IMG/VR virus record: IMGVR_UViG_2778261392_000003
DNA: 26,096 nt
DNA from: a virus
Taxonomy: Duplodnaviria > Heunggongvirae > Uroviricota > Caudoviricetes
Direction: 5' to 3' (one strand)
Part shown: in pieces, positions 1 through 26,096 of the stretch
How the letters are laid out: each line of letters starts with the position of its first letter
How positions within the stretch are numbered: the first letter of the stretch is position 1
Program-made: the position numbers and the translations under genes
The notes under the pieces: model-generated
What the model saw: the letters and a program-made list of their open reading frames with translations, nothing else
The model's database searches: none
Told to the model about the DNA's origin: nothing

Positions 1-1032
1 TCAAAAACTTGCTATTGATGTTGGTAGTGTTGCCAGCGGATTAAACCGTAATGCAGTTTCCAGGTGATCCGGTGCCAGATGTGCGTAACGCATAGTCATT
101 TTTATATCGTGATGCCCGAGAATTTTTTGTAAGGCCAGGATATTTCCACCCGACATCATGAAGTGCGCCGCAAACGTATGGCGCAGAACGTGTGTCAGTT
201 GACCGCGAGGGAGCACGATAGACGTTTTTTCCATCACGGATAAAAATTGAAAATAGCAGTCTGTGAAGAAATTGAACCCATCAAGCGCCATGATCTCTTC
301 GTAAAGCTCTTTACTGATAGGGATGCTTCTGTTTTTCTTCCCCTTCGTTCTTACAAAGGTAATTCGGTATTTGGTCACCTGTGAGCGGGTAAGATTTACG
401 GCTTCACGCCAGCGTGCGCCTGTGCTTAAGCATATCTTAACTACCAGTGCCAGAATTGGGTCCTGACGTTTGCAATCAGCCAGCAATTCAACAATCTGCT
501 CATGGGTAAGCCATGCCATCTCTTTTTCTGCGATGGTGAATTTTCGCATGTTCTCCAGTGGGTTCGGATACGACCATTCGCCCAGACGGGATAGTTCGCT
601 AAAAACACTACTTAGATAGCTTTGCTCCAGGTTAATGGTGACCGGGCTTGCTCCTTTCTTCCATTTCTCGCTGAAGTAGATCTCGCCTGTCAGGCGTTTA
701 TCTCGATAGTGGGCAAACATTTTAGAGGTGAGATCGGTTGCAAGAGGATTGCCCAGAGCGTCAACCATCAACAGCAATTTGTCATAAACATGCTGCCCAG
801 CTGTCAGAGATTTACCATGTAGTTTGAACCATAGCTCAACCACGTCTTTCAGTGTTCGACGATCCACGGATTCACCCAGCCAGGGCTTTGCTTCGGTTTC
901 TTCCATCGTGTGACGCTCAAAAGCCAGTGCTTCGCCTTTGGTGGCGAATTGTTTACGTACACGACGCCCACTACGTCCGGCGGGGTAACATTCGCAAAGC
1001 CATTTTCCTGTGGTGAGTTTTCGTACTGCCAT
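1..1032 (-). CDS. int: Tyrosine integrase, P2/186 family (complete; stop codon at window positions 1-3)
   Basis: 343 aa ORF; C-terminal catalytic region with HVLRHTFAAH...RYAHL typical of tyrosine recombinases; located at prophage end next to the repressor operon as in P2/186. Confidence 0.9.
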   Translation of the reverse strand: MAVRKLTTGKWLCECYPAGRSGRRVRKQFATKGEALAFERHTMEETEAKPWLGESVDRRTLKDVVELWFKLHGKSLTAGQHVYDKLLLMVDALGNPLATDLTSKMFAHYRDKRLTGEIYFSEKWKKGASPVTINLEQSYLSSVFSELSRLGEWSYPNPLENMRKFTIAEKEMAWLTHEQIVELLADCKRQDPILALVVKICLSTGARWREAVNLTRSQVTKYRITFVRTKGKKNRSIPISKELYEEIMALDGFNFFTDCYFQFLSVMEKTSIVLPRGQLTHVLRHTFAAHFMMSGGNILALQKILGHHDIKMTMRYAHLAPDHLETALRFNPLATLPTSIASF

Positions 1033-1112: not shown

Positions 1113-2444
1113 TTAGTTCAACATTAAAGCTTCAATGGTGGACGAAACAAGTGTTCGGGGAGGCACTGCGTCTAAGCCGTTTTGAAAGAAATCATAGGTA
1201 GCACGTTCAGTCCATTTTCTTCTGGTTTCATCATCTTTTATAAAGAATGGAGATGTTGTATCAATATAGTCCAGTACGATCCCATAAATAGCACATTCAG
1301 TATTATCTATCCTATAAATATCTTCATCGTAACTTAAATATTCAAAGCCTAAGGTTTTGATAATGCTTTCTGCATCCACAGAATTATCTAGATAACTTAA
1401 TGCCAAAGGGCGATTTAAAGAGTATAATATTACCCCTAACATTCGATATAATGAATAACCAAATACTTTCCCTGGACCAATTCCAGATTGAGATAGCACC
1501 TGATATATTTCAAAGTGGCGTGATAATGTTTCTACTTCACGTAAAGACAACTTAGCCCTTTGTATTATCGTTTTTATGATATGCCCGCATGATTCGTCTA
1601 CTTCTTGCAGTTTTTGAGAATCATTTTTTAATATTCCCCATAAAGCAACAGATGCGTATGCAGGTGTATAGTTATCTGGTTTATATGTATCTGGCAATAC
1701 AAATGTAAACTTAATGAATTTGTCTAAATACTGATCTGCATTTATGGATAAACCATACAGATGCCTTATTGATGCCTTGAGTTGTTGAGTCTTTGCAACC
1801 AATACAAAATTTAAATTTTTTATTTCAAAAATGTGTTTGATATTTTCTATGATTGAAAGAGCGAATGTAGGTTTACATCTGTCCAGTTCGTCTATAAAAA
1901 TCGTTATTTTATATTCCTCCGTAAGATGCGATATTGTACTTCTCAGTGTCTCGATGTTTTTCTGCGCCTCTATATGATCGTCTAATAATGTTTCAATTGT
2001 ACTGTCAATTGCACTCGAAGTTGCTTCTTTGATAGCATCTTCGAAGCCATCAACAATGTCATCTGCATTTTGTTTTAACACCCATCCAGTGCCTGCTTTG
2101 AAAATGGTTTTCAAACCAAAACGTATTGCTGGAAGTGTTTTATTTATTAACTCCTTTCGTTCATTTTTGGGAAGAAGTGCAGCAACACCAGCCATTAACG
2201 TCAAAATTGGGGCATCATTATGATCTTCAGCGAAAGCATCAATGTAAACTACTTTATGTTTTTGATTATTGCTTTCAATTAGATTTGCAACTTTTTTGCA
2301 AAACTCTGTTTTCCCCGTGCCCCATCCGCCATCTATAACCAGTGGAGATAAGTTAATATCAGAGTCAAGTAGCGATATTAATTTTTCAGCAATAGGCTTA
2401 CGAAGGAACTCGTCACGATAATCAAACGTATATTCAATAGGCAT
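1113..2444 (-). CDS. KAP-family P-loop NTPase (accessory cargo, candidate defence protein)
   Basis: 443 aa; Walker A GGWGTGKT near N-terminus; Walker B with KAP-typical hhhhDELDRC (IFIDELDRC); ATG at 2444 preceded by GGAG RBS; AT-rich by eye compared with phage core; only 31 bp downstream of the repressor stop, same strand. Confidence 0.7.
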   Translation of the reverse strand: MPIEYTFDYRDEFLRKPIAEKLISLLDSDINLSPLVIDGGWGTGKTEFCKKVANLIESNNQKHKVVYIDAFAEDHNDAPILTLMAGVAALLPKNERKELINKTLPAIRFGLKTIFKAGTGWVLKQNADDIVDGFEDAIKEATSSAIDSTIETLLDDHIEAQKNIETLRSTISHLTEEYKITIFIDELDRCKPTFALSIIENIKHIFEIKNLNFVLVAKTQQLKASIRHLYGLSINADQYLDKFIKFTFVLPDTYKPDNYTPAYASVALWGILKNDSQKLQEVDESCGHIIKTIIQRAKLSLREVETLSRHFEIYQVLSQSGIGPGKVFGYSLYRMLGVILYSLNRPLALSYLDNSVDAESIIKTLGFEYLSYDEDIYRIDNTECAIYGIVLDYIDTTSPFFIKDDETRRKWTERATYDFFQNGLDAVPPRTLVSSTIEALMLN

Positions 2445-2475: not shown

Positions 2476-3051
2476 TTAAAATTTTTCTGCTCTTCTTAGT
2501 ATGCAACACCACACAATTCCAACAATCTGTATTTCGTCTCTAGAACACTCAAAACCACGATTTCCTCCTTCAACATATAATCTGTTATTAGGTAAGCGGG
2601 TCAGGGTTCGGACCGAAATTTTTTCGTCGATACCTATTAGCCACAATCCATCGCTTATATCATCATATTCAAAACTACATATATATTCGTTATCCAGATC
2701 TTCAATGATGAATGGGTTACATATTTTTTCAGGTAAGAATGTTTTATCAAAAACATATGCCCCATCTTCAATTAGTGTTCCAGAAATTAATTTTTTCTTT
2801 GGTACTAAAATTTGCGCATTTGTATTTGAAATATTTTTATCACCTATACCGAATGACAACCATTCTAGTGAATAACCAGTTTCGATAGCACATTGCAAAA
2901 CCCAATCTGCAGGGAAGATGTCTCGCATGTAACGTGTAGCCATAGTGCTCTTGGATACTCCCAAGTGATCGCAAAGAGCCTGTCTAGTAGAGAACCCATA
3001 CGCCTCAACTAGACGTTCAATGACTTTCTTACCACCGCTGCTGAAATCCAT
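2476..3051 (-). CDS. cI: Phage immunity repressor, 186 CI-like (N-terminal HTH plus C-terminal domain)
   Basis: 191 aa, same size class as phage 186 CI; N-terminal HTH-like segment (TRQALCDHLGVSKSTMATRYMR); ATG at 3051 with GGAGGA RBS; divergent from the early lytic operon. Confidence 0.7.
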   Translation of the reverse strand: MDFSSGGKKVIERLVEAYGFSTRQALCDHLGVSKSTMATRYMRDIFPADWVLQCAIETGYSLEWLSFGIGDKNISNTNAQILVPKKKLISGTLIEDGAYVFDKTFLPEKICNPFIIEDLDNEYICSFEYDDISDGLWLIGIDEKISVRTLTRLPNNRLYVEGGNRGFECSRDEIQIVGIVWCCILRRAEKF

Positions 3052-4786: not shown

Positions 4787-5013
4787 TGGCTGATGCAATG
4801 GATCTCGTACAGCAGCGCGTTGAAGAAGAACGCCAGCGCCATATCCGTGCTGCCCGTGCCAAAACGCCGGGCATGTCCCGCGTGCTTTGCATTGAGTGTG
4901 AAGCGCCAATTCCGCCAGCACGCCGTCGTGCCATTCTGGGTGTGCAGCTTTGCATTACCTGTCAGGAAATCGCAGAGCTGAAAGGCAAACATTACAACGG
5001 AGGTGCTGTATGA
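4786..5013 (+). CDS. TraR/DksA-family C4 zinc-finger protein
   Basis: 75 aa with CxxC...CxxC (CIECEAP...CITCQ) arrangement; ATGA overlap with downstream dam start. Confidence 0.7.
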   Translation: MADAMDLVQQRVEEERQRHIRAARAKTPGMSRVLCIECEAPIPPARRRAILGVQLCITCQEIAELKGKHYNGGAV

Positions 5014-5867
5014 GCACCATCCTGAAATGGGCGGGAAATAAAACCGCCATTATGTCCGAACTGAAAAAACACCTTCCTGCTGGCCCGCGACTGGTTGAAC
5101 CTTTCGCGGGTTCCTGTGCTGTGATGATGGCGACGGATTACCCCAGCTATCTGGTTGCTGATATTAATCCTGATTTAATCAACCTCTATAAAAAGATTGC
5201 CGCTGATTGTGAATCGTTTATATCTCGTGCCAGAGCTTTATTTGAGGAAGCAAACAGGGAGGTGGCTTATTACAACATAAGGCAGGAGTTTAACTGCTCA
5301 ACTGAAATTACTGACTTCATGAAAGCAGTATATTTCCTGTATCTCAATCGTCACGGTTACCGTGGGTTATGTCGCTATAACAAGAGCGGGCATTTCAACA
5401 TTCCCTACGGTAATTATAAAAATCCGTATTTCCCTGAAAAAGAAATTCGCGTATTTGCAGAGAAAGCCCAGCGAGCAACGTTTATCTGCGCCAGCTTTGA
5501 TGAAACGCTGGCGATGCTGCAGTTGGGGGATGTGGTGTATTGCGATCCGCCTTATGACGGTACGTTTTCCGGCTATCACACTGACGGCTTCACTGAAGAT
5601 GACCAGTATCACCTGGCATCTGTTCTTGAATATCGATCATCAGAAGGTCATCCAGTCATTGTTTCTAACAGTGACACATCCCTGATCCGTTCGCTGTATC
5701 GAAATTTCACTCACCACTACATCAAGGCAAAACGCAGCATCGGCGTGTCGGCTGGCGAGAGTAAATCTGCAACAGAAATCATTGCTGTTTCCGGGGCGCG
5801 CTGCTGGGTGGGATTTGATCCTTCGTGTGGCGTGGATAGTTCTGCTGTGTACGAGGTGCGTGTATGA
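5010..5867 (+). CDS. dam: DNA N6-adenine methyltransferase, Dam family (likely GATC-specific)
   Basis: Motif I-like EPFAGSCAV near N-terminus and catalytic DPPY (CDPPYDG); ATG 5010 with GGAGG RBS; ATGA overlap with A gene start. Confidence 0.85.
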
Positions 5868-8278
5868 GTCATGACGATATGAGCAACTCTAGCGGCTTTA
5901 ACGAGGCCGCTGCAGCATTTTCATGGAACGGCCCGAAAAAGGCCATTAACCCTTATCTGGACCCGGCGGAAGTTGCGCCGGAGTCTGCACTTTCAAACCT
6001 GATCACTCTGTACGCTGCCGATAATGAGCAGGAACAGCTGCGCCGCGATGCACTGAGTGAGCAGGTCTGGGAGCGTTATTTCTTTAATGAATCTCGTGAT
6101 CCTGTCCAGCGCGAAATGGAGCAGGATAAGCTCATTAGCCGGGCAAAGCTGGCGCATGAACAGCAGCGTTTTAACCCGGACATGGTCATTCTGGCGGACG
6201 TCAGCGCCCAGCCCACCCATATTAGCAAGCCGCTGATGCAACGTATCGAATACTTCAGCAGCCTGGGCAGGCCAAAGGCTTATTCCCGCTATTTGCGTGA
6301 GACGATTAAGCCATGTCTGGAGCGACTGGATTGTGTACGTGACAGTCAGCTGTCTGCTTCTTTCCGTTTTATGGCAAGCCATCAAGGGCTGGAGGGCCTG
6401 CTGATCCTGCCTGAAATGAGTCAGGATCAGGTGAAACGCCTGTCCACCCTGGTAGCTGCGCATATGAGCATGTGCCTTGATGCAGCTTGTGGCGATTTGT
6501 ATGCCACTGATGACGTTAAGCCAGAAGAAATCCGCAAGACATGGGAAAAGGTGGCGGCGGAAACCCTGCGTCTGGATGTCATCCCACCTGCGTTTGAGCA
6601 ACTCCGTCGGAAAAGAAACCGCCGTAAACCCGTGCCCTATGAACTCATTCCGGGTTCGCTGGCGCGTATGTTGTGCGCCGACTGGTGGTATCGGAAATTA
6701 TGGAAAATGCGTTGCGAATGGCGGGAAGAGCAGTTGCGTGCTGTCTGCCTGGTCAGCAAAAAAGCATCTCCCTATGTCAGCTATGAAGCCGTGATGCATA
6801 AACGTGAGCAGCGCCGTAAGTCGCTGGAGTTTTTCCGTTCTCATGAACTGGTGAACGAAGACGGCGAAACGCTGGACATGGAGGATGTGGTAAACGCCAG
6901 CAGCAGCAACCCTGCGCATCGCCGCAATGAGATGATGGCCTGTGTTAAAGGTCTGGAGCTTATCGCGGAAATGCGCGGTGACTGCGCCGTTTTCTACACT
7001 ATCACCTGTCCGTCACGTTTCCATTCCACGCTCAACAACGGCAGACCCAACCCGACCTGGACAAATGCGACGGTAAGACAAAGCAGCGATTATCTGGTCG
7101 GCATGTTTGCTGCATTTCGTAAGGCAATGCACAAAACCGGGTTGCGCTGGTATGGCGTGCGGGTGGCTGAGCCGCACCATGACGGTACTGTGCACTGGCA
7201 TCTCATGTGCTTCATGCGTAAAAAAGACCGCCGCGCCATCACTGCATTACTGCGTAAGTTTGCCATCCGTGTAGACCGCGAGGAGCTGGGCAACAACACG
7301 GGGCCACGCTTTAAGTCTGAGCTGATTAACCCGCGCAAAGGAACACCGACAAGCTACATCGCGAAATACATCAGTAAGAACATTGACGGGCGTGGTCTGG
7401 CTGGCGAGATCAGCAAGGAAACGGGTAAATCCCTGCGTGATAACGCCGAATACGTTAATGCCTGGGCGTCTCTGCATCGTGTTCAGCAGTTCCGCTTCTT
7501 TGGTATTCCGGGACGTCAGGCTTACCGTGAACTTCGCTTGCTGGCAGGTCAGGCGGCAAGGCAACAGGGTGACAAAAAAGCAGGTGCGCCAATACTGGAT
7601 GACCCGCGCCTTGACGCCATCCTGGCTGCTGCTGATGCTGGTTGTTTTGCCACCTACATCATGAAGCAGGGCGGCGTACTGGTTCCCCGTAAATATCACC
7701 TTATCAGAACCGCTTATGAAATCAACGAAGAGCCGACCGCCTATGGCGATCACGGCATTCGTATTTATGGCATCTGGTCACCCATTGCAGAGGGCAAGTT
7801 CTGCACTCACGCAGTGAAGTGGAAAATGGTTCGTAAGGCCGTTGACGTTCAGGAGGCGGTAGCCGACCAGGGCGCTTGCGCCCCTTGGACTCGTGGCAAT
7901 AACTGTCCCCTTGCTGAAAATTTAAACCAACAAGGGAAAGACAAATCAGCTGATGGGGACTCCAGAACGGATATTACCCGTATGAATGACAAGGAGTTGC
8001 ACGATTACCTGCACAGTATGAGCAAAAAAGAGCGCCGGGAACTGGCTGCAAGGTTACGCCAGGTGAAACCGAAACGGCGTAAAGACTACAAACAGCGAAT
8101 TACAGACCATCAGCGACAGCAGCTCGTCTATGAACTGAAGTCCAGGGGATTTGATGGCAGCGAGAAAGAAGTCGATTTGCTCCTTCGCGGCGGCAGTATT
8201 CCGTCAGGAGCAGGCCTGCGTATCTTCTATCGGAACCAGCGTCTGAAGGAAGATGATAAGTGGCGGAACCTGTATTAA
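5864..8278 (+). CDS. A: Replication initiation endonuclease (P2 gpA-like rolling-circle initiator)
   Basis: 804 aa; HWHLMCF metal-binding type motif; size and position as P2 gene A at end of early operon. Confidence 0.85.
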
Positions 8279-8371
8279 TTACGCGGGTTAACAATTCGTG
8301 CTCTTAATAATACCAGGCATATCAGGCCGATGAACGTAAAAAAACGTTTTACATCAGTAAGATTATTATAT

Positions 8372-8430: not shown

Positions 8431-8619
8431 ATGCAGGACTATTTTTTGGAGTCTTTGAAGCTCCAGCGCATTGATTTTTTTCTTAAGCTTGTAGCGGCTA
8501 GTGAGTGTAGTGATGAAGAGAAGGGGCTGGCTCTGCAGTGGGTTTCTGAATTGACTGATGAACTCATGGCAAAAATCAGAAGCCACGAATACAACCGCTC
8601 AATGGATGTCATCAGCTGA
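8431..8619 (+). CDS. Small protein of SOS-controlled module (possible Tum-like antirepressor component), function unknown
   Basis: 62 aa; ATG 8431 with AGGAGGA RBS; immediately downstream of LexA box; followed 10 nt later by DinI-like gene. Confidence 0.5.
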   Translation: MQDYFLESLKLQRIDFFLKLVAASECSDEEKGLALQWVSELTDELMAKIRSHEYNRSMDVIS

Positions 8620-8629
8620 GGTGACTTTT

Positions 8630-8863
8630 ATGCGCATTGAAATAATGATCGATAAAGAGCAGAAGATTAGCCAGTCTACCCTGGACGCCCTTGAATCCGA
8701 GCTTTACCGCAATCTGCGCCCCCTGTATCCCAAAACGGTAATTCGCATTCGCAAAGGTAGCTCTAACGGTGTGGAACTAACCGGACTGCAACTGGATGAA
8801 GAAAGAAAACAAGTGATGAAAATTATGCAGAAGGTGTGGGAGGACGACAGCTGGCTGCATTAA
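8630..8863 (+). CDS. DinI-family protein
   Basis: 77 aa beginning MRIEIMIDK and ending WEDDSWLH, matching hallmark ends of E. coli DinI (MRIEV...WESADDWF); GAGGTG RBS 6 nt upstream of ATG 8630. Confidence 0.75.
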   Translation: MRIEIMIDKEQKISQSTLDALESELYRNLRPLYPKTVIRIRKGSSNGVELTGLQLDEERKQVMKIMQKVWEDDSWLH

Positions 8864-9397: not shown

Positions 9398-9885
9398 GGA
9401 AACTCCTTTTATTGGTGTTTGCTATTTGAATAAAAATACGCCAAACAGAGTGTTAACTGTGAATCTGGAAAGAATCGTTGTAAGTACCCCGCTTAGGTGT
9501 CCCATTCTATTTTAGAGGTTCTCGTGCATATGGATTATGTTATCTGAAAGCTAACTTCCGCTTCCCGTTCACAGCGAACATTCATCTTTGTAAACCCGTA
9601 TGATCCGTTTTTCAAGTGGCCATTCAGATACGGATTTTCACTTCCTTGACAGTGCATGACTATGCTGCATGAAATCGCATGATCGATTGAGGATCGTCTT
9701 TGCTCAGATCCGCCAGAACTGGCGGGCTTTTGCTCATGTCATGCATGTGCATGAAAACCACTGCATAAAGCGGGCAGGCGTGGCGGGGATACGAGCGCGC
9801 GGCAGTGGATATGTTCACAAAACGGATGAAATCTAACATGTAATGTCATATTATCTAAAAGCTGTTAAGTATGACGGGAGGAATA

Positions 9886-11124
9886 ATGCGACATTTCATC
9901 GAAACTATCTTCTTTAAAAGGAACGATGAGCCTTACACATTAAATCTTGATGGTAAGAATCTAATAATATCAGGAGATAATGGCTCTGGTAAAACTAGGT
10001 TGATCGAGAATATTTATGAGTTTATAGAAAAATCGATTAATTCACATGATCCTTATACTAAGGAGCAGCTACAAAAGGAATTGAATTCCAGTCAAGAAAA
10101 CTTAAAGTATTCAAATAGAGGGGATGGTAATTATAGCTATTTAAACGAAGAAATTGAGAGACTGAAAGAAAAATTAAAAGAATTTGAGAGCTTTGATATT
10201 ACTTTTAATGATGTGGTTGATTTCAGGGTTGCTGCAAAAAAGAAAAAATCAATTATAAGATTATTTCCTGCTATTCGAGAAGCGAAAATAAAAAATGATG
10301 GTAAGATTAGCAGCCTCGATTTGTTGTTAACTGAGTATGGGAACGCACAGAGAAATAATTCTAAGATTGATGCTGGTATGTATTTTGAAAGATACATAGT
10401 TACATTGTGGAATTATGCTTTAGTCAGTAAGGGAGTGGGCAAGGATGATGACTATAAAAGAGCCTTTGATATTATTGAGAGTATTAATGATGACTTAAAA
10501 GAACTTTTTGAAGATGAAAGTATTAGAATGGATTTTGATCTCGACAAGTTGAAAATCTATCTTTTACAAAATAATAAGGAACCATTTGGACTTGATAAGT
10601 TGTCATCTGGTTTTTCATCAATTCTTTCTATTTATACTGATTTATTGATAAAAGCAGAGCTTGATAAAATCAGAAAACATGATATGACAGGGATAGTACT
10701 TATTGATGAAATTGATGCTCATCTTCATGTAACATTGCAAAAGAAAGTATTTAGTTTTTTTTCATCATCTTTTCCGCAAATACAATTTATTGTTTCTACG
10801 CATTCACCTTTCGTAATCCAATCAGTATCTGATGCGATTATATTTAATCTCTCAACATTGGATCAGATGGGTGATTTATCATTGTATTCTTACACAGCAA
10901 TTATAAAGGGATTGTTGGGTGAGGATGTATCTTCGGATAAGCTAAATGCATTAGTTAAAGAATTAATGACTTTAGTAGAAAATAATGTCTTCGACGATAG
11001 ATTTCATTCTATAATGAAAACGTTACAGAAGAGTATTGATTTTCTTGATAAAAGTTCAAAAGCAGCTTTTATGATCGCTAAGAGTAAATATTTAGATTAT
11101 AGCGAAAGGGAAGACGATGTTTAA
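9886..11124 (+). CDS. ptuA: ABC/AAA15-type ATPase, Septu PtuA-like
   Basis: Walker A GDNGSGKT, ABC signature-like LSSGF, Walker B IVLIDEIDAHLH, H-loop STHSPF; coiled-coil-like insert; start taken at ATG 9886 (GGAGG upstream), alternative ATG 9871; AT-rich by eye. Confidence 0.65.
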   Translation: MRHFIETIFFKRNDEPYTLNLDGKNLIISGDNGSGKTRLIENIYEFIEKSINSHDPYTKEQLQKELNSSQENLKYSNRGDGNYSYLNEEIERLKEKLKEFESFDITFNDVVDFRVAAKKKKSIIRLFPAIREAKIKNDGKISSLDLLLTEYGNAQRNNSKIDAGMYFERYIVTLWNYALVSKGVGKDDDYKRAFDIIESINDDLKELFEDESIRMDFDLDKLKIYLLQNNKEPFGLDKLSSGFSSILSIYTDLLIKAELDKIRKHDMTGIVLIDEIDAHLHVTLQKKVFSFFSSSFPQIQFIVSTHSPFVIQSVSDAIIFNLSTLDQMGDLSLYSYTAIIKGLLGEDVSSDKLNALVKELMTLVENNVFDDRFHSIMKTLQKSIDFLDKSSKAAFMIAKSKYLDYSEREDDV

Positions 11125-11788
11125 TGTTACTAGAAACATTCCTGCACCTCAATGCTTGTCGAGAAAAGTATATAACCATAAAACAGTTGTAAATGCTTTA
11201 GACGAAATATTTCATGGAAAATGTTATCTCTGTGAGCAAGGTAATCTTATGGATCCAGAGATAGAACATTTTATTCCACATCGTGATCTTGATGAGCTCA
11301 AATATGATTGGAACAATCTATTTTTAGCTTGCAGTCGATGCAATAGTATTAAAAGTGATTCTTTTGAAAACTTACTTGATTGCACAAAGAGTGATGTTGA
11401 TGTTTTCAGTGAGATTGTTCATCTCGCAGGGAACGCTATAACGAGTGGTGTTCAAGTATACCCAAGAAGAAAAAGACCAAGTAGAAAGGTTTTAAATACA
11501 GTCAAATTATTAGATAAGTGTTTTAACTCTTCGAGTACGGGGTTGAGGGGCATTACAAGAGCAAATCTCTCAGAGAAGTTACAAGATGAATTGTTTTACT
11601 TTACTGGTTGGAGAATGAAACTTGTCAGTGATCGAAGCACAGAACAAGAAATCCAAGAGGCCAAGAATAAGCTAAAGCCAATGTGTAATGTATCATATCC
11701 ATTTTCTGTTTTTTGGCGTTGGCATTTATTAACTGATATTCGAGTAATGAAAAAATTCCCAAGAATCAGAGATGAGCTTGGTTTTTAA
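11117..11788 (+). CDS. ptuB: HNH endonuclease, Septu PtuB-like
   Basis: 223 aa; CxxC (CYLCEQ), HFIPH, and NLFLACSRCNSIK form a classic HNH zinc-finger nuclease motif; 8-nt overlap with upstream ATPase gene (translational coupling). Confidence 0.65.
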   Translation: MFNVTRNIPAPQCLSRKVYNHKTVVNALDEIFHGKCYLCEQGNLMDPEIEHFIPHRDLDELKYDWNNLFLACSRCNSIKSDSFENLLDCTKSDVDVFSEIVHLAGNAITSGVQVYPRRKRPSRKVLNTVKLLDKCFNSSSTGLRGITRANLSEKLQDELFYFTGWRMKLVSDRSTEQEIQEAKNKLKPMCNVSYPFSVFWRWHLLTDIRVMKKFPRIRDELGF

Positions 11789-11825: not shown

Positions 11826-12854
11826 TTAAGTTAAACTATAATCTTCAAATTGGATTATATCTTCATCTATCCAATAATTTAGTTCTTGTAACCGTTTTTG
11901 TAAAGGTATCAGTTCATTTATAACAAAAACCTTACTAGCCTTCTCCACATCCCCAAACCCCCCAACATTATTAGGCATTATCCCCATCATTTGCGGCGGC
12001 ACGCGGTGCGCAGCCATCATGTCATCACGGCTCACGTTCTTGATATTCAAAAACTCATCCTTCGCCGCGACTTCTGACAATGGGATGATCTGAAGCCCGT
12101 CCTTTTTGCCGTTAGGCGAGTACATAAACAGGTTGCGGAAGTTACCCGGTCCTTTGGCGCTTTTCATCGCGTTGCGGAGGTTGTTCACATCCTCCTGGTT
12201 CTGCGCGGCATCGGTCATGTACATGATGAAGCCAGCATGACTGCCGTTTATGTAATACTTTCGACGGAACAGCGTGGCGGACTCATTGAGCAGGGCGGAC
12301 GGAATAGCAGAAAGATAACCGGGCAGGCCGTAGATCTCCTGGTTGATATCGGGTTCCATCAGATGAAAGATGCTGCCTTTCGTGAACTGATACGGCTGGG
12401 TTGTCATACCGTATTGCACAAACCAGTAGGTATCCAGGTCTAACCCGCGTCGGGTGTATTTTGCCAGAGCAGGCTCAAGGGCGATAACTTCACCGAAGCG
12501 GTTCGTGCGTTTCTCCAGGTAGGCGTTACCAAATACCAGATAGTCCTGCACAAAACGTGAAAAAGCCTGCTGGCTGAGCAGCGGGTGGGGGATGTAGGTA
12601 CTGGTCAGAATGTTGCATTTCACCGCAATTGGTGAACTGTGATGCACGGCGGCGCGGAAGGTGCGCGCCAGTCCGTCAAAGCTTACTGGCGGCTCATACC
12701 AGCGATCTGTCTGTACGCATTCCACATAGTCCAGTAGTTCGCGGCGGTCCAGAACAGGAACGGGATCGCCAAAGCTGAATGCTTCGGCTGTAGTTTGACT
12801 TTTATGCTGGATCTGGTTCGTCGACGCAGCGCGGTTCTTCTTACTCTTTCCCAT
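11826..12854 (-). CDS. Q: Portal protein (P2 gpQ-like)
   Basis: 342 aa; synteny and size; ATGA overlap with terminase P stop. Confidence 0.9.
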   Translation of the reverse strand: MGKSKKNRAASTNQIQHKSQTTAEAFSFGDPVPVLDRRELLDYVECVQTDRWYEPPVSFDGLARTFRAAVHHSSPIAVKCNILTSTYIPHPLLSQQAFSRFVQDYLVFGNAYLEKRTNRFGEVIALEPALAKYTRRGLDLDTYWFVQYGMTTQPYQFTKGSIFHLMEPDINQEIYGLPGYLSAIPSALLNESATLFRRKYYINGSHAGFIMYMTDAAQNQEDVNNLRNAMKSAKGPGNFRNLFMYSPNGKKDGLQIIPLSEVAAKDEFLNIKNVSRDDMMAAHRVPPQMMGIMPNNVGGFGDVEKASKVFVINELIPLQKRLQELNYWIDEDIIQFEDYSLT

Positions 12855-14620
12855 CAAAAAATCTCCACAATATTACTGGTATTGGCGGACTCGCCCTGCA
12901 GTGGTTCGTTAAACAGTGCGTGCATTGTTGCCCAGGCCAGATCGGCGTGGCTGGCTTCTTCGCTGCGGCTGGCTTCATAGGTTGGGCGGTTGCCACTGGC
13001 GGTGGTTGCGCGACGGATTGCCATGAATGACTGCGCAATGTCGGTGTGCCCGGCGTCAAACTCCAGACGGCGGTGGCTGATAATGTCGTAGGCCTTGAGT
13101 ACCAGGGCGTTTTTAACGTTGGGGTTGTAGACAAACTCCCGGACGGCAGGAAAGAACGCTTTCACGTTCTCGTAAACCCCGTGACCAACGCCGGTTGAGT
13201 CGATACCGATATAAGTCACGTTGTACTGTTCGGTAAGTTTTTTGATGGCGTCAGCCTGGGCGCGGAAGTCCATCCCGCGCCACTGGTGACGCTCAAGAAT
13301 GCGGAACTTACCACCCGGCACGGCTGGCGGTGCCACCACCACGCATCCAGCGCTGTCGCCGTTTTGCGTACCTTTTGCCGGGTCATAACCGATCCACACT
13401 TCGCGCCAGTCAAACGGGCGCAGCGCCAGTGCATGAAAGTCGGTCCAGACTTCCCAACTGTCCACCATGCACGCCTGCAGCTCGCTGAGCGGAAACACGG
13501 ACGCGAGATCGTCCACAAACTCGCACATCAGCAGGTTCTGGTATTCGTCTGGGCTGTACTCCATGCGTAGCTGGTCGAGGTCGAACAGGTTACAGCCGCC
13601 GCGCACCGCATCTTCCACGGTGACTATCTGGCGGTATTGCCCGTCTGCGCACAGCAGGCCGGGGGCCAGATTGCTGTGGGACAGGTCGATGTCCACCTTA
13701 TCGGCTTTGTTGCGCCCACGGTTGAACAGCGCACCGGACCAGAACGGATAAGCACTGTGTGTCAGACTGGATGGCGTGGAAAAATAGGTTTGTCGCCATT
13801 TTTTGTGAATAGCCATACCGGAAGCCACTTTGCGCAGCTCCTGGAATTTCGGTATCCAGAAATATTCATCCAGATACAGGTTGCCGTGGTAACTCTGGGC
13901 CGTGCGGGCATTGGTGCCGAGGAAGTAAAGCGTGGCCCCGTTAGGAAGCACCATCGGATCGCCTTTCAGCTCCACCTCCACTTCTTTGGCAAAGTCGATG
14001 ATGTACTGTTTAAAGACGTGGGCCTGAGCCTTGCTGGCAGAAAGGAAAATCTGGTTACGCCCGGTCAGCAGGGCGTCAATCAGGGCTTCACGGGCAAAGT
14101 AAAAGGTCGCGCCGATCTGGCGTGACTTCAGCAGGTTGCGGATGCGGTTGGTTTTTCCGGCTTCCCACCAGTGGCGCTGGTAGTTGAACATAGAGGAATG
14201 GAAGATTTCTTCCAGCTTCTCAATCTGTTCATCGGTGAAGACATTCTTTTCCGGCTGACGACGTGGGCCTTTGTTGCGGTTGGCAACGTTAGGGTTTAAG
14301 TCGGCTTCGTTGCCGCCATTGTTAAACTTGCCGATCCGCGCGTGGCGCTCAGACTGGCGTGCCAGCAGGTCAATTTCTTTGAAATCTTTCCCTTCTTTGT
14401 GCTCCTTCATAATGAGCTGGCAGTAGCGTGCGGCGGTGGTGAGCTGCATCTGATCCAGCGGCCCATAGTCACCCCACTTGTCGCGTTTTTTCCAGCTGTG
14501 AACGGTTGCAACTTTCTCGCCCAGCATTTCAGCAATGCGGGCGACGCGGTATCCCTGAAAGTACAGCAGCATGGCCTGCCGACGGGGATCGAGATCTGCG
14601 GGTGTCAGTGTGGTGTTCAT
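12854..14620 (-). CDS. P: Terminase large (ATPase) subunit (P2 gpP-like)
   Basis: 588 aa; position divergent from O-N-M operon; characteristic size. Confidence 0.9.
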   Translation of the reverse strand: MNTTLTPADLDPRRQAMLLYFQGYRVARIAEMLGEKVATVHSWKKRDKWGDYGPLDQMQLTTAARYCQLIMKEHKEGKDFKEIDLLARQSERHARIGKFNNGGNEADLNPNVANRNKGPRRQPEKNVFTDEQIEKLEEIFHSSMFNYQRHWWEAGKTNRIRNLLKSRQIGATFYFAREALIDALLTGRNQIFLSASKAQAHVFKQYIIDFAKEVEVELKGDPMVLPNGATLYFLGTNARTAQSYHGNLYLDEYFWIPKFQELRKVASGMAIHKKWRQTYFSTPSSLTHSAYPFWSGALFNRGRNKADKVDIDLSHSNLAPGLLCADGQYRQIVTVEDAVRGGCNLFDLDQLRMEYSPDEYQNLLMCEFVDDLASVFPLSELQACMVDSWEVWTDFHALALRPFDWREVWIGYDPAKGTQNGDSAGCVVVAPPAVPGGKFRILERHQWRGMDFRAQADAIKKLTEQYNVTYIGIDSTGVGHGVYENVKAFFPAVREFVYNPNVKNALVLKAYDIISHRRLEFDAGHTDIAQSFMAIRRATTASGNRPTYEASRSEEASHADLAWATMHALFNEPLQGESANTSNIVEIF

Positions 14621-19755: not shown

Positions 19756-20194
19756 ACTGCAGAAGGTGGACGACTGGCTTAGTGCCTTACTGGCGAATCT
19801 GGAACCAGTCGCAAGAAGCCGCATGATGCGCCAGCTGGCGCAGGAACTGCGCCGGACACAGCAGCAGAATATCAGGATGCAGCGCAATCCAGATGGCAGC
19901 AGTTATGAACCGCGCAAGGTCACGGCGCGCAGTAAAAAAGGCCGCATCAAACGTCAGATGTTTGCAAAGCTGCGCACCACCAAATACCTGAAAACCGCCG
20001 CCAGCGCCGACTCTGCCAGCGTACAGTTTGAAAGTAAGGTGCAGCGCATTGCCCGCGTTCACCATTATGGCCTGCGCGATCGCGTCAGCCGCAAAGGACC
20101 GGAAGTGCGTTACGCAGAGCGTCGTTTGTTGGGTCTTAATGGTGAGTCTTACGTTCTAACTCTTGATATATTGAATAGATTCCTTCTGTCTTGA
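19748..20194 (+). CDS. S: Tail completion / virion morphogenesis protein S (P2 gpS-like); 3' end lies in AT-rich inserted DNA
   Basis: 148 aa; overlaps R stop; the last ~17 codons (from about 20143) are in visibly AT-rich sequence and overlap the 3' end of the opposite-strand membrane-protein gene. Confidence 0.75.
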   Translation: MAELQKVDDWLSALLANLEPVARSRMMRQLAQELRRTQQQNIRMQRNPDGSSYEPRKVTARSKKGRIKRQMFAKLRTTKYLKTAASADSASVQFESKVQRIARVHHYGLRDRVSRKGPEVRYAERRLLGLNGESYVLTLDILNRFLLS

Positions 20195-20942
20195 ATTCAC
20201 CATATGCCCAATGAATTGCATTTTTTTGTTCAGTCAGAATATATTTCCTAACTTTTTTAGAATAGTGAATGGTCAGTATAAAACCCAAAGAAATCCATAA
20301 TAGAATAAATATGGTTGTTGGGGCAAAGGAATAGATAAAGAATTTGTCTTTAACGAAATTCTTGACTTCTTCATCAATGTAAGCATTCCCTTCATCAGTG
20401 GTTAGTAGTTTACAAAGAATTTCTTTATGTTCGATAGTTAATGATTTGTACTTCTCTGTACTGGCAGAGGATGACTCTTCGCAATCATCCTTTGATATTT
20501 CCCAATCAGGAGTGGTTAATATTGTAGCTGCAGTCGCCAGTTTTTTTGACATATAAAATGATTCACCGGATTTTATCCAATAAAGCAATGTGCTATTTGG
20601 TGGGGTTCTAATGGCTTGGATGAAAACTGGACCAAAAATATAAATTGCACACAAAAAAAGAAGTGAAAAGAGAACCGTGATTGATTTTTCAGCCCATGTG
20701 ATAGTAGGCAGCCTTTTTAATGATATTCGTATAAGAAAAAAATTTAATATAAACGCAGGTATTCCTGATTTTTTCAAAATTACATCATGAGATTTTCTAT
20801 ATTTGAATAGTGCTCTTATAACTATCGTCACCAAAGTTATAACAGCTCCAATAATGGAAATCCATGCGGCAAGTGCCGCTGCCGGGGTGTTTAAAAATTC
20901 AGCATTAAATATATTAGAACTTATTGGATTCATAACACTCAT
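20136..20942 (-). CDS. Multi-pass membrane protein, unknown function (cargo gene between late operons; candidate superinfection-exclusion/abortive-infection protein)
   Basis: 268 aa; 3 hydrophobic helices in first ~110 aa (AAALAAWISIIGAVITLVTIVI; IPAFILNFFLIRI; ITVLFSLLFLCAIYIFGPVFIQAI), ~100 aa charged soluble domain, then a 4th helix (IFILLWISLGFILTI); ATG 20942 with AGGTGG RBS; strongly AT-rich; opposite strand to all flanking late genes. Confidence 0.65.
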   Translation of the reverse strand: MSVMNPISSNIFNAEFLNTPAAALAAWISIIGAVITLVTIVIRALFKYRKSHDVILKKSGIPAFILNFFLIRISLKRLPTITWAEKSITVLFSLLFLCAIYIFGPVFIQAIRTPPNSTLLYWIKSGESFYMSKKLATAATILTTPDWEISKDDCEESSSASTEKYKSLTIEHKEILCKLLTTDEGNAYIDEEVKNFVKDKFFIYSFAPTTIFILLWISLGFILTIHYSKKVRKYILTEQKNAIHWAYGEFKTEGIYSIYQELERKTHH

Positions 20943-22875: not shown

Positions 22876-23473
22876 TCTGCTGCCACCGGGTTCAACTTCA
22901 CTGGAGCGACGACTGGCGCAAACCTGCAGCGGGATTTCTGATCTGCAGGTGCCGCTGCGTGACTTGTGGAATCCGGCAACCTGTCTGGTCAGTTTCCTGC
23001 CTTATCTCGCCTGGGCGTTCTCTGTGGATCGCTGGGACGAGGGCTGGACAGAAAGCGTCAAGCGCCAGGTGGTGAAGGATGCTTTTTATATTCATCAGCA
23101 TAAAGGGACCACCAGTGCCGTGCGGCGGGTGGTGGAGCCGTTCGGCTTTCTGATCCGCATTATTGAGTGGTGGCAGACCGGAGAGGCACCGGGCACGTTT
23201 CGCCTGGATATCGGCGTGCAGGACCAGGGCATCACTGAAGATACCTATCTGGAACTTGAGCGACTGATAAGCGATGCCAAACCATGTAGCCGTCACATGA
23301 TCGGCATGTCCATCAATCTGCAGACCAGCGGCCCGCATTGGGTGGGAGCCGCCAGCTATATTGGCGAAGAAATCACGATCTATCCGTATATCAACGAAAC
23401 AATTATTTCCGGTGGCACCGCGCATGAAGGCGGGGCGGTCCATGTTATTGACACAATGAGAGTGAATCCATGA
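22868..23473 (+). CDS. I: Tail/baseplate protein I
   Basis: 201 aa; overlaps J stop; synteny. Confidence 0.85.
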
Positions 23474-24885
23474 GCACAAAATTTTATACCCTGCTGACGG
23501 ATATTGGTGCGGCGAAACTTGCCAGCGCCGCCGCGCTCGGTGTGCCTTTAAAAATTACCCATATGGCGGTAGGCGATGGCGGCGGAACATTGCCAACGCC
23601 GGACGCAAAGCAGACAGCATTAGTAAATGAGAAACGCCGGGCTGCGCTGAATATGCTGTACATCGACCCGCAGAACAGCAGCCAGATTATTGCTGAACAG
23701 GTGATCCCTGAAAACGAGGGCGGTTGGTGGATACGTGAAGTGGGCCTGTTTGATGAGTCCGGGGCATTGATTGCCGTGGGCAACTGCCCGGAAAGCTATA
23801 AGCCGCAACTGGCTGAAGGCAGCGGGCGTACCCAGACCGTGCGTATGGTGTTGATTACCAGCAGCACGGACAATATCACCCTGAAAATCGACCCTGCCGT
23901 AGTGCTGGCAACCCGCAAGTATGTGGATGACAAGGCACTGGAGCTGAAGGTGTACGTGGATGACCTGATGGCAAAACATCTTGTCGCACCGGACCCGCAT
24001 TCACAGTATGCACCCAAAGAAAGTCCGACGTTTACCGGAACCCCCAAAGCGCCAACGCCAGCGGCGGGGAATAACACCACGCAGGTTGCGACCACCGCGT
24101 TTGTTCAGGCGGCACTGACGGCTCTTATTAATGGTGCGCCAGCCACGCTGGACACGCTGAAAGAAATAGCCGTAGCCATTAACAATGATCCGAAATTCAG
24201 TACCACCATTAACAATGCGCTGGCACTGAAAGCGCCACTGTCGAGTCCGGCACTCACCGGAACGCCAACAGCACCTACTGCGGCACAGTCGGTCAACAAT
24301 ACACAGATTGCCACTACAGCTTTTGTGAAATCAGCGATTGCAGCAATGGTGGGTTCTGCACCCGCGGCACTGGATACACTGAACGAACTGGCGGCGGCAC
24401 TGGGGAATGATCCGAACTTTGCCACGACAATGCTTAATGCGCTGGCAGGTAAACAACCGCTGGACAATACGCTGACTAATTTGAGTGGAAAGGATGTAGC
24501 TGGTCTTCTCGCATACCTTGGTTTGGGAGAAGCGGCAAAACGGAATGTAGGTAACGGGCAAAACCAAATTCCGGATATGGCGGCGTTTGCCAGTTCACTT
24601 TCATCAACGGGTTTTCAAAAACTCCCTTCAGGTCTGATTATTCAGTGGGGTATTGTCAGTGGAGCATCAAACTATACGGTGACTTACCCGGTAACATTCC
24701 CAAATCGTTCACTTGCGCTGTTGACTGTGCCACATACAACGTCGGTGGCTGGTATATCTGCAATGGGCATAGCGAACTGTTCTGATATCAGCAAATCACA
24801 GTTCTATATAATTGTTGGCGGTATATCTCAGGGAGAAATTGTCAAATATGAAAGGTCCTGTTTTTGGGTAGCAATCGGTGTATAG
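23470..24885 (+). CDS. H: Tail fibre protein H (constant N-terminal part plus currently fused variable C-terminal cassette)
   Basis: 471 aa; repetitive PT/AT-rich shaft (TGTPKAPT...TGTPTAPT); C-terminal ~110 aa lie inside the inverted-repeat-bounded segment. Confidence 0.85.
24520..24551. repeat. Left inverted repeat of invertible tail-fibre segment (32 bp perfect, degenerate extension to about 24580)
   Basis: GGTTTGGGAGAAGCGGCAAAACGGAATGTAGG is the exact reverse complement of 26065-26096. Confidence 0.75.
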
Positions 24886-24893
24886 GTATATCT

Positions 24894-25289
24894 ATGATTT
24901 ATTTCTCAAAATCGACTAATGGTTTTTTCTTTGATGGTATAAACAGCGACATGCCTGCTGACATTGTTGAGATAAGTACAGACTTATACAATGAATTAAT
25001 TGCCGGACAGCAGGAAGGGGGTAAATTAATCACGTCAGATGAAAATGGTTTACCGGTACTGAAATCTCCGGCGATTGATTATGTCGCACGTGCTGAAAAT
25101 CAGCGAATGCAGTTACTTGCTCATGCCGATAATGTCACAGCTGACTGGCGGGTGGAATTAATGCTTGGTGATATCAGCAGTACAGATAAAGAAAAACTAT
25201 CTGCCTGGATGGACTACAAAAAAGAAGTAAAAGCCGTCGACACTTCGACGGCTCCTGAGATTAGCTGGCCTGAGTTACCGGAGGTGTAG
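24894..25289 (+). CDS. G: Tail fibre assembly protein (gpG/Tfa-like), cassette matching current orientation
   Basis: 131 aa from ATG 24894, 8 nt after H stop; C-terminus similar to the opposite-strand Tfa. Confidence 0.75.
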   Translation: MIYFSKSTNGFFFDGINSDMPADIVEISTDLYNELIAGQQEGGKLITSDENGLPVLKSPAIDYVARAENQRMQLLAHADNVTADWRVELMLGDISSTDKEKLSAWMDYKKEVKAVDTSTAPEISWPELPEV

Positions 25290-25704
25290 GCCATTCAATA
25301 TCTGGAGCACTGGAGGTATCCACCAGTTCCAGTGCGTCCAGGTAATCCAGCCACAAATTATATTGCGCCAGTTCCTCACCTTTCAGACGACCAATAGCTG
25401 CTTTGCCAGGCCATTGCTTACTGTTCATGTATTCGTTAGCCTGGTTAATTAGTAGCTGTCTTTCTGATTCAGTAATTTCAATAAGCTCTTCATGCGTGGG
25501 TGGAGGAATATCTGCCCACGCAGGCAGCCCATCATCTCCGGCAATACGGATTTTTCCTTGTGGCGGTTCAGCCATAAACTCACTGATAATATTTTGATTT
25601 ACTTCCTTTGCGTCTGATAAATCCCATCCCTCTGATTTATATTTATCAATCATATCCACAGGGAAAAAAGCATTATGCCTTGCGCTATAAACATATTCGT
25701 TCAT
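25261..25704 (-). CDS. Alternative tail fibre assembly protein (Tfa') for the inverted orientation
   Basis: 147 aa from ATG 25704; C-terminal DTSSAPDIEWPTPPV resembles plus-strand Tfa DTSTAPEISWPELPEV; convergent with and overlapping G by 29 bp. Confidence 0.7.
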   Translation of the reverse strand: MNEYVYSARHNAFFPVDMIDKYKSEGWDLSDAKEVNQNIISEFMAEPPQGKIRIAGDDGLPAWADIPPPTHEELIEITESERQLLINQANEYMNSKQWPGKAAIGRLKGEELAQYNLWLDYLDALELVDTSSAPDIEWPTPPVTQAS

Positions 25705-25724
25705 ATAAATCACCCTGAATAAAA

Positions 25725-26096
25725 TTACTCACCAACAGCCCACCAACTGTAATTCATCGATACTGTGGAGCTGGTTGATGCAGTTCTGTAAGCGGAATTA
25801 AAACCGGTTAGTGTTGGACCTTCTGCAGTCATCATAAATCCCCGTCCAGCGCCTAAAGGCGCACCACCATCACCAGAATGGGTAAGCATGGCGCAGTCCA
25901 CTTTTTTAGGAAAAGGGATGCTGAATGTAATTCTCATTGTTTGCGTCGATAATGTCGGCGTAATCGCACCACGACCATATTGCAGGATTTTCCCGTTGGG
26001 TAATTTCATCCATCCATCACCACTGGCAAAAGAGGTCATGTCCGGTATCTGATTTTCCCCTGTTCCTACATTCCGTTTTGCCGCTTCTCCCAAACC
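25725..26096 (-). CDS. Alternative tail-fibre C-terminal cassette (no own start; becomes the H C-terminus after inversion); runs to the window edge
   Basis: Open frame begins within the right inverted repeat with [11 protein letters not shown], the same peptide as H residues encoded at 24520-24551, then diverges; stop at 25725. Confidence 0.7.
26065..26096. repeat. Right inverted repeat of invertible tail-fibre segment (cut by window end)
   Basis: Exact reverse complement of 24520-24551. Confidence 0.75.

Follow-up and report, generated by a model that had tools for sequence, protein, structure and literature searches.

A P2-like prophage whose tail-fibre gene ends in a probable Pin-type DNA inversion switch

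The IMG/VR virus record IMGVR_UViG_2778261392_000003, whose full 26,096 nucleotides we refer to as the window, carries a P2-like (Peduoviridae-type) prophage that extends from its integrase gene (1-1032, minus strand) through the tail-fibre region. The end of the tail-fibre gene H in this prophage very probably constitutes a site-specific DNA inversion switch of the Pin type, within the Hin/Gin/Cin/Pin family. The locus has the inverted repeat, the left crossover site and two in-frame fibre fusions of such a switch, and its relatives provide the complete right site, an adjacent invertase gene and both orientations of the segment in near-isogenic genomes. The element is an ordinary member of a described class and is already known in kind, and we know of no experimental study of this exact pair of fibre cassettes, here called A and B. 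The features of the locus, with positions numbered as in the window, are as follows.

23470-24885, plus strand: tail-fibre gene H, 471 amino acids (aa), with a PF12571 N-terminus and a Gp53-like_C tip
23470-24519, plus strand: constant part of H, codons 1-350, outside the invertible segment; PF12571 (Phage_tail_fib), E=2.6e-65
24506-24531, no strand: left (H-side) crossover site of 26 base pairs (bp), TTCTCGCATACC-TT-GGTTTGGGAGAA, organised as 12-2-12 with its core at 24518-24519
24520-24594, no strand: left inverted repeat, exact over 24520-24551 and 84% identical over 75 nucleotides
24520-24885, plus strand: fibre tip of cassette A, 121 aa; PF21882 (Gp53-like_C) at H residues 384-470, E=1.3e-13
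24894-25289, plus strand: tfaA, tail-fibre assembly chaperone cognate to tip A, 131 aa; PF02413 (Caudo_TAP), E=1.8e-24
25229-25256, minus strand: terminator-like hairpin from a consensus scan, with a 12-bp stem followed by a T-run, directly after tfaB and inside the 3' end of tfaA
25261-25704, minus strand: tfaB, chaperone cognate to tip B, 147 aa; PF02413, E=2.3e-31
25725-26096, minus strand: fibre tip of cassette B, 123 aa, start-less and silent in this orientation; PF21882 (Gp53-like_C), E=4.3e-13
26022-26096, no strand: right inverted repeat, exact over 26065-26096; its last 12 bases, 26085-26096 (TTCTCCCAAACC), form the right crossover site's inner half

Read in reverse complement, the final 32 bases of the window match the left arm of the repeat (GGTTTGGGAGAAGCGGCAAAACGGAATGTAGG) exactly, as the original prediction had stated. 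This 32-mer is present once on each strand of the window, and comparable matches were found in 0 of 100 dinucleotide-preserving shuffles. Inward from the exact portion, the repeat continues imperfectly to its full 75 nucleotides because both arms encode the conserved starts of two related tips, whose first ~25 residues are common. The outer limit of the repeat is readable from relatives, the window itself ending at 26096. In relatives with the same two cassettes, identity runs exactly 2 bases further outward, across a TT/AA core, and then ends, such that the perfect repeat of relatives carrying the A/B pair is 34 bp with the core included. The placement of the second repeat copy exactly at the window edge is also what would be seen if a fold-back or a chimeric contig end had made a terminal inverted repeat during assembly. 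We give this explanation next to no credence, given that the identical arrangement continues through the invertase and tail-sheath genes in many closed genomes, and that unique coding DNA with Pfam-supported genes lies between the repeats. Such an artefact is refuted by the closed genomes and by the flipped copy of the segment in strain F637, described below.

The repeat start at 24520 had also been taken as the start of the element. This position holds for the repeat, but the functional 26-bp site starts 14 bp further left, at 24506. The two half-sites of this left site match at 10 of 12 positions as a dyad, and the inner half consists of the first 12 bases of the repeat. The same left site is present in the related loci L001, L002, L003, L006, L007, L011 and L027-L030. 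Comparison of 15 related loci shows an invariant core plus inner half (TT GGTTTGGGAGAA), while the outer half reads TTCTCGCATACC or TTCTCACATACC on the H side and TTTTCATAAACG or TTTTCTTAAACG on the invertase side, the two sides being distinct. In the closest complete relative, Escherichia coli S21 (L001; 97.7% identity to the window over 23400-26096), the right site is TTCTCCCAAACC-AA-CGTTTATGAAAA. The S21 sequence that lies beyond the window end therefore indicates that the window stops 2 bp short of the right-site core. Only the inner half of the right site is inside the window, and every relative has the full site, whose AA core reads TT on the other strand.

These sites can be assigned to a subtype by comparison with those of characterised systems. 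Both pix sites of the cryptic prophage e14 of E. coli K-12, which read CTCTCGAAAACC-TT-GGTTTGGGAGAA and TTTTCATAAACG-TT-GGTTTGGGAGAA in the K-12 record, have exactly the core plus inner half found here (TT-GGTTTGGGAGAA). Moreover, the right site of the relatives is identical to the pinE-proximal e14 site at 26 of 26 positions, and the switch thus belongs to the Pin/pix subtype and not to Mu/gix. The repeat sequences reported for e14 by Goldberg et al. in 2014 (PMC4272514, Table S1; AAACCTTGGTTTGGGAGAAGG) and by Kirigo et al. in 2025 (PMC12529663; TTGGTTTGGGAGAAGG) agree with a pix-type site. The left site of the window is also closely similar to cixL of phage P1, which reads CAATCCTAAACC-TT-GGTTTAAGAGAA in its record, with the crossover annotated in the TT. 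The gix site of phage Mu reads TTATCCAAAACC-TC-GGTTTACAGGAA in the records. A Mu gix subtype was accordingly rejected on the basis of the TT/AA core and the different half-sites, and the locus is G-like in its working only. Thus, of the architecture originally proposed, the Gin/Cin/Pin type of inversion system is upheld, whereas the likeness to the G segment fails at the level of the sites (pix, with a TT/AA rather than a TC/GA core). A shufflon, which would involve an Rci tyrosine recombinase and at least three sfx sites, was likewise rejected, as the window region has two site copies and the recombinase of the relatives is of the serine type.

Between the repeats are two convergent cassettes, each composed of a Gp53-like fibre tip of about 120 aa and a Tfa chaperone. 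Open reading frames (ORFs) and Pfam matches bear out the predicted content of the segment, namely the C-terminal part of H and a Tfa gene on one strand, and a second Tfa gene and a start-less fibre C-terminus on the other. Alternative fibre C-termini, each with its cognate chaperone, are therefore found on opposite strands, and the single constant N-terminal part that they share lies outside the segment. Tips A and B are 51% identical across their first ~75 aa, with no detectable similarity beyond, and TfaA and TfaB share only 24% identity. The tfaA product is annotated in relatives as tail fiber assembly protein WP_000639074.1, and the convergent tfaA and tfaB genes overlap by 29 bp (25261-25289). 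NCBIfam yielded no family for the fibre or chaperone proteins, and only sub-threshold matches for the invertase of the relatives.

The reading frame across the repeat is consistent with the exchange of tips on the constant part of the fibre. Nucleotides 24520-24552 code for an 11-aa peptide in frame with H, and the silent tip B opens with such a peptide at the window edge. This peptide had been proposed to be the fusion joint, and strand exchange would fall in the TT just before it (Leu350). A flip of the segment in silico, in which the reverse complement of 25725-26096 follows directly on H codons 1-350, yields an uninterrupted fibre ORF of 473 aa, and the related loci L003 and L004 indeed carry tip B fused to H as an intact ORF of this same length. 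The constant part of H is colinear in relatives of either orientation, at 95-99% identity. It supplies the start codon to whichever tip is joined, and presumably also brings the promoter of the late V-W-J-I-H operon to that tip. Tip A is currently fused to H and is therefore the expressed receptor-binding end.

A scan for internal promoters gave three sigma-70-like matches where 4.4 were expected, which is not above chance. The consensus terminator scan that detected the strong hairpin after tfaB did not find a plus-strand counterpart after tfaA. With a predicted hairpin on the minus strand only, the two orientations may differ in read-through towards the invertase and sheath genes.

Both orientations of the segment, which the original prediction had expected to be detectable, are represented among relatives, including near-isogenic strains. 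This evidence comes from relatives and not from the source genome. A count that required both the H flank and the whole A/B segment, conducted with 5,426 complete E. coli genomes, yielded 11 arranged as in the window versus 20 flipped. Similarly, a synthetic junction between the constant part of H and tip B found single-piece, full-length matches in 56 complete E. coli genomes, compared with 18 for the natural junction of H and tip A of equal length. For example, strain F637 (L004) carries the entire segment reversed at 99.56% identity between flanks that remain forward at 95.7%, and its colinearity breaks exactly at CCAAACC-AA, which is at the crossover site. The E. coli O157:H7 sister isolates AC-5 and AC-3 have identical flanking protein accessions and coordinates, and differ by the reversal of a 1,584-bp piece with one mismatch. 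A further orientation pair, with cassettes B and C (the latter of the e14 stfE/tfaE type), is provided by the IMG/VR contigs L008 and L009.

Another case, which bears on the mechanism of exchange, is strain Combat13F7, whose chromosome has one orientation while a circular record of the same prophage, 45,156 bp in size, has the other. The exact repeat in this strain is only 19 bp, which argues for site-specific over homology-driven exchange. RecA-dependent homologous recombination between inverted repeats of 34-75 bp would otherwise be a conceivable source of the orientation differences, because 75-nucleotide repeats at 84% identity do exist here and because short inverted repeats are known to undergo homologous recombination in E. 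coli (reference 12 cited in PMC4272514). We consider this route very improbable. In addition to the two orientations within the single Combat13F7 assembly, the outer edge of identity matches the core of a canonical 26-bp invertase site to the base, a Gin/Pin-type invertase invariably lies next to the segment, and the unrelated cassettes A, B and C occur on either side despite having only a 14-bp core plus half-site in common.

The circular Combat13F7 sequence deserves separate mention. The record NZ_CP019246.1 (L030), named 'plasmid pCombat13F7-1', duplicates the chromosomal P2-like prophage of L029 with the same protein accessions, and differs from it in that the fibre segment is flipped and one tail gene is frameshifted. 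Instead of a true plasmid, the record probably represents a phage circle, excised or replicating, or else a by-product of assembly.

A serine invertase had been expected just beyond the window, and a serine recombinase gene was found there, on the plus strand right after the repeat, in every relative that extends that far. After the right site it is present in L001, L003, L004, L005, L008-L011, L025 and L027-L030. In these relatives the gene is situated between the silent tip and the tail-sheath gene FI, about 30 bp past the silent-tip ORF, and encodes a protein of approximately 185-197 aa (186-197 aa where annotated), which is full-length in at least 10 loci. The 188-aa protein of S21 contains the Resolvase (PF00239, E=2.6e-53) and HTH_7 (PF02796, E=1.4e-15) domains and, in its match to the Mu Gin structure 3UJ3 (E=1e-92), retains Ser9. 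Identities of the relatives' invertase amount to 74.6% with Gin, 78.6% with Cin and 93% with PinE over the first 105 aa, the residues compared. The gene is intact in the relatives except in phage P2-T22 (L002), where the match is split in two, and in L007, where the match is partial.

Several points weigh against reading the locus as a working switch of this kind. The invertase gene lies beyond the window, as do the right site's core and outer half, and the presence and integrity of the invertase in this prophage are presumed from the sequences of relatives. Exact-pattern scans of IMG/VR and of species-representative genomes, together with a 25-kb megablast against complete E. coli genomes, returned only relatives of at most 99.6% identity. 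The apparent disruption of the invertase in at least one relative, phage P2-T22, indicates that there are locked copies. The record of P1 annotates the Cin enhancer inside the 5' end of cin (nucleotides 19-90), and the stretch of the relatives' gene that aligns with this enhancer is 78% identical versus 69% for the rest of the gene, a difference that coding constraint alone could explain. Identity at third codon positions in the relatives (0.50 in the enhancer-aligned stretch versus 0.42 elsewhere) is likewise not separable from coding constraint, and a Fis-dependent enhancer function within the invertase gene would be expected by analogy. That tips A and B recognise different receptors is also something that we infer.

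The first two of these points bear on whether the switch might be a fossil, with the invertase missing or dead in this prophage and the segment frozen in the state that expresses tip A. Such a locked state would fit with the lack of an invertase within the window, with the split invertase of P2-T22 (two tblastn pieces) and its atypical right site, whose outer half equals the H-side half, and with the partial match in L007. We nevertheless regard it as unlikely. All ten close relatives with an intact context have a full-length invertase, and the window has exactly the left site of relatives that occur in both orientations. Several independent draft contigs also break at these repeats, as would result from mixed orientation or a collapsed repeat. 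Furthermore, such sites are flipped in trans by other resident Pin invertases (PMC12529663), so loss of the gene in cis would not necessarily lock the segment. For this same reason, taking the absence of a nearby invertase as the sign of a fossil inversion, as the original prediction did in part, is too strict. We conclude that the Pin-type switch is likely to be active in the window's own genome.

The P2-T22 locus itself (phage 'P2' of E. coli O157:H43 T22, KC618326, positions 5842-8350) has the H-type outer half TTCTCGCATACC at both sites, and its invertase match comprises residues 1-121 and 141-185. This switch is possibly locked or rearranged.

By analogy with characterised invertases, the switch in the window would operate as follows. 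Dimers of the small serine invertase, encoded just past the right site, would bind both of the 26-bp crossover sites, which face each other in inverted orientation around the segment of about 1.58 kilobases (kb). A synapse would then form with an enhancer that is bound by Fis and lies in the invertase gene's 5' end, and both strands would be cut at the 2-bp TT/AA core (24518-24519 on the left, within the Leu350 codon and just before the 11-aa joint peptide). Rotation by 180 degrees and religation would join H residues 1-350 in frame either to tip A with tfaA, which is the state of the window, or to tip B with tfaB. A population of lysogens would thereby release virions of two receptor specificities. 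Catalysis by the invertase, and its presumed dependence on Fis and the enhancer, are here modelled on the known systems.

The crossover sites also appear to have a role beyond inversion. Cassettes of types A, B and C occur on either side of the switch in different prophages, and the e14-type cassette C replaces cassette A in P2-like prophages (L003, 5208-6307; L008/L009; compare L024, which is e14, and L025 of an enteropathogenic E. coli strain). Because the three cassettes have in common only the 14-bp core plus half-site, these sites look like joints for cassette exchange. This short shared sequence thus appears to serve as an exchange joint for fibre-tip cassettes between unrelated prophage types. 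Host-range prediction or engineering of P2-like phages and tailocins should consider both tips, as well as the modular exchange of cassettes A, B and C with e14. The locus illustrates the way in which two receptor-binding tips are carried by a P2-like prophage, and opens no new biological question.

The boundaries of the window and of several related contigs coincide with features of this locus. The left end of the window coincides exactly with the integrase stop codon, and its right end is the repeat's outer edge. The IMG/VR contig L006 appears to end at the same base as the window, L017 stops at the left site, and the start of L010 is just within the left repeat. This pattern of draft-contig breaks suggests that the repeats, or a mixture of orientations, interrupt assembly. 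The break at the window edge gives a weak and indirect hint that the segment was flipping, or was at least unresolvable, in the sequenced culture. The locus explains why short-read assemblies, probably including the window, break exactly here.

Gene annotation is affected as well. When tip B is joined to H, RefSeq/PGAP calls H 'incomplete, missing C-terminus' or a pseudogene and adds a separate gp53-like or phage tail protein. For the silent tip, in turn, a spurious ATG is called in the spacer past the crossover site. These calls are a systematic annotation artefact at invertible fibre genes. The instances in which H is mis-annotated with tip B joined are as follows, the ORF having been checked and found intact at 473 aa in L003 and L004.

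L003, 3351-4772: H joined to tip B
L004, 3351-4772: H joined to tip B
L028, 3845-5044: H joined to tip B
L030, 4071-5492: H joined to tip B

The remainder of the prophage carries additional cargo. A Septu anti-phage defence pair occupies 9871-11788 (plus strand), flanked by the replication/DinI region and by the portal gene Q (11826-12857, minus strand), a site that corresponds to the classical old/tin cargo hotspot of P2. Its components are PtuA (417 aa; PADLOC E=7e-122) and the HNH protein PtuB (223 aa; E=2e-82). A KAP-family P-loop nucleoside triphosphatase (NTPase) of 443 aa (1113-2444, minus strand; Pfam E=4e-50) is located between the integrase gene and that of the CI repressor (2476-3051), and matches the PADLOC candidate defence system PDC-S20 (E=2.6e-173). 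A DUF6216 protein of 268 aa is encoded on the opposite strand at 20136-20942 (minus strand), with the virion-morphogenesis gene S on one side and the baseplate gene V on the other. The content of this position varies, with a different 350-aa hypothetical protein in S21 (L001), DUF6216 in JNE082640 (L003) and nothing in F637 (L004). A D12-class N6-adenine (Dam-like) DNA methyltransferase gene (4950-5867, plus strand) lies directly upstream of the replication gene A, and a DinI-like protein is encoded downstream of gene A (8558-8863, plus strand). Searches of the window revealed no Rfam families at the gathering threshold and no tRNAs.

One speculative extension relates the switch to this defence cargo. 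The sites are the same as the pix sites of e14, which are flipped in trans by PinE and PinQ, and the state of the switch could therefore be coupled to other Pin invertases in the cell. By analogy with the e14 chimera StfE2, which blocks adsorption of phage T2 (PMC12529663), one orientation might act as a receptor-masking defence against superinfecting phages. We hold this coupling and its defensive role to be quite improbable, but if true, receptor masking would add to the Septu and KAP-NTPase cargo of the same prophage.

Among known inversion systems, the G segment of Mu with its invertase Gin follows the same logic as the locus described here, with a constant N-terminal fibre part and alternative S/S' fibre and U/U' assembly genes. 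The Mu system resembles it further in having a 34-bp inverted repeat, a 26-bp site and an invertase gene just outside the segment. However, the gix core is TC/GA as opposed to TT/AA, the half-sites differ, and the G segment is approximately 3 kb in size, with variable parts that are much longer than those in the window. The C segment of P1, which is inverted by Cin, is nearer at the level of the sites, as cixL has a TT core and a near-identical inner half-site (GGTTTAAGAGAA). The C segment measures about 4.2 kb, and the order of cin relative to the segment is reversed compared with the invertase gene here. The inverted repeats of the C segment, at roughly 0.6 kb, are also much longer. Another member of the family is Fin of Fels-2, a P2-like prophage of Salmonella, which is a Hin-family invertase encoded beside the tail-fibre genes and able to act in trans on hix sites (reference 43 cited in PMC4272514).

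Loci in the same genomic place are known from enteropathogenic E. coli (EPEC) E2348/69, in which two P2-like prophage loci, along with e14, were found to be phase-variable by paired-end sequencing and the polymerase chain reaction (Goldberg et al. 2014, PMC4272514). The EPEC loci lie between H and the tail-sheath gene, as does the segment in relatives of the window, and have an adjacent serine recombinase, about 80% identical, and the same site core. The first (L025; 2,977,580-2,979,467), at 2.98 Mb, contains a fibre tip, a tfa gene, a convergent tfa gene with a gp53-like tip, the recombinase gene and the sheath gene. Its gp53-like tip and 146-aa Tfa resemble cassette B, whereas the partner cassette is of the C type, and the prophage that contains the locus is truncated. 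The second EPEC locus carries other cassettes and is a shufflon-like variant with three sites. The 1,577-bp 'small inversion' of this second locus was considered as the same segment on account of the identical length, and was rejected as a coincidence because its cassettes are different. More generally, a 2024 preprint reports that a DNA invertase is often present at this locus of P2-like phages, with inversion of adjacent genes.

Judged from its sequence, the closest relative of the switch is the P segment of e14 with its invertase PinE, and not the G segment of Mu. The P segment has the same layout, consisting of two convergent cassettes of tip and tfa followed by the invertase gene, and a similar size, about 1.8 kb against about 1.58 kb here, and the cassette C present in some relatives of the window is the e14 stfE/tfaE module. 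Kirigo et al. (PMC12529663) found that PinE, and PinQ acting in trans, flip the e14 segment and that a resulting chimera, StfE2, blocks the adsorption of phage T2. The two systems nevertheless differ in several respects. The e14 element is a defective lambdoid remnant, whereas the host element described here is an apparently complete P2-like prophage. The constant part in the window is a P2-type H protein (tail-collar fibre, PF12571), unlike that of e14, and the H-side outer half-site is TTCTCGCATACC rather than the CTCTCGAAAACC of e14. Finally, tips A and B are short gp53-like domains that are absent from e14.

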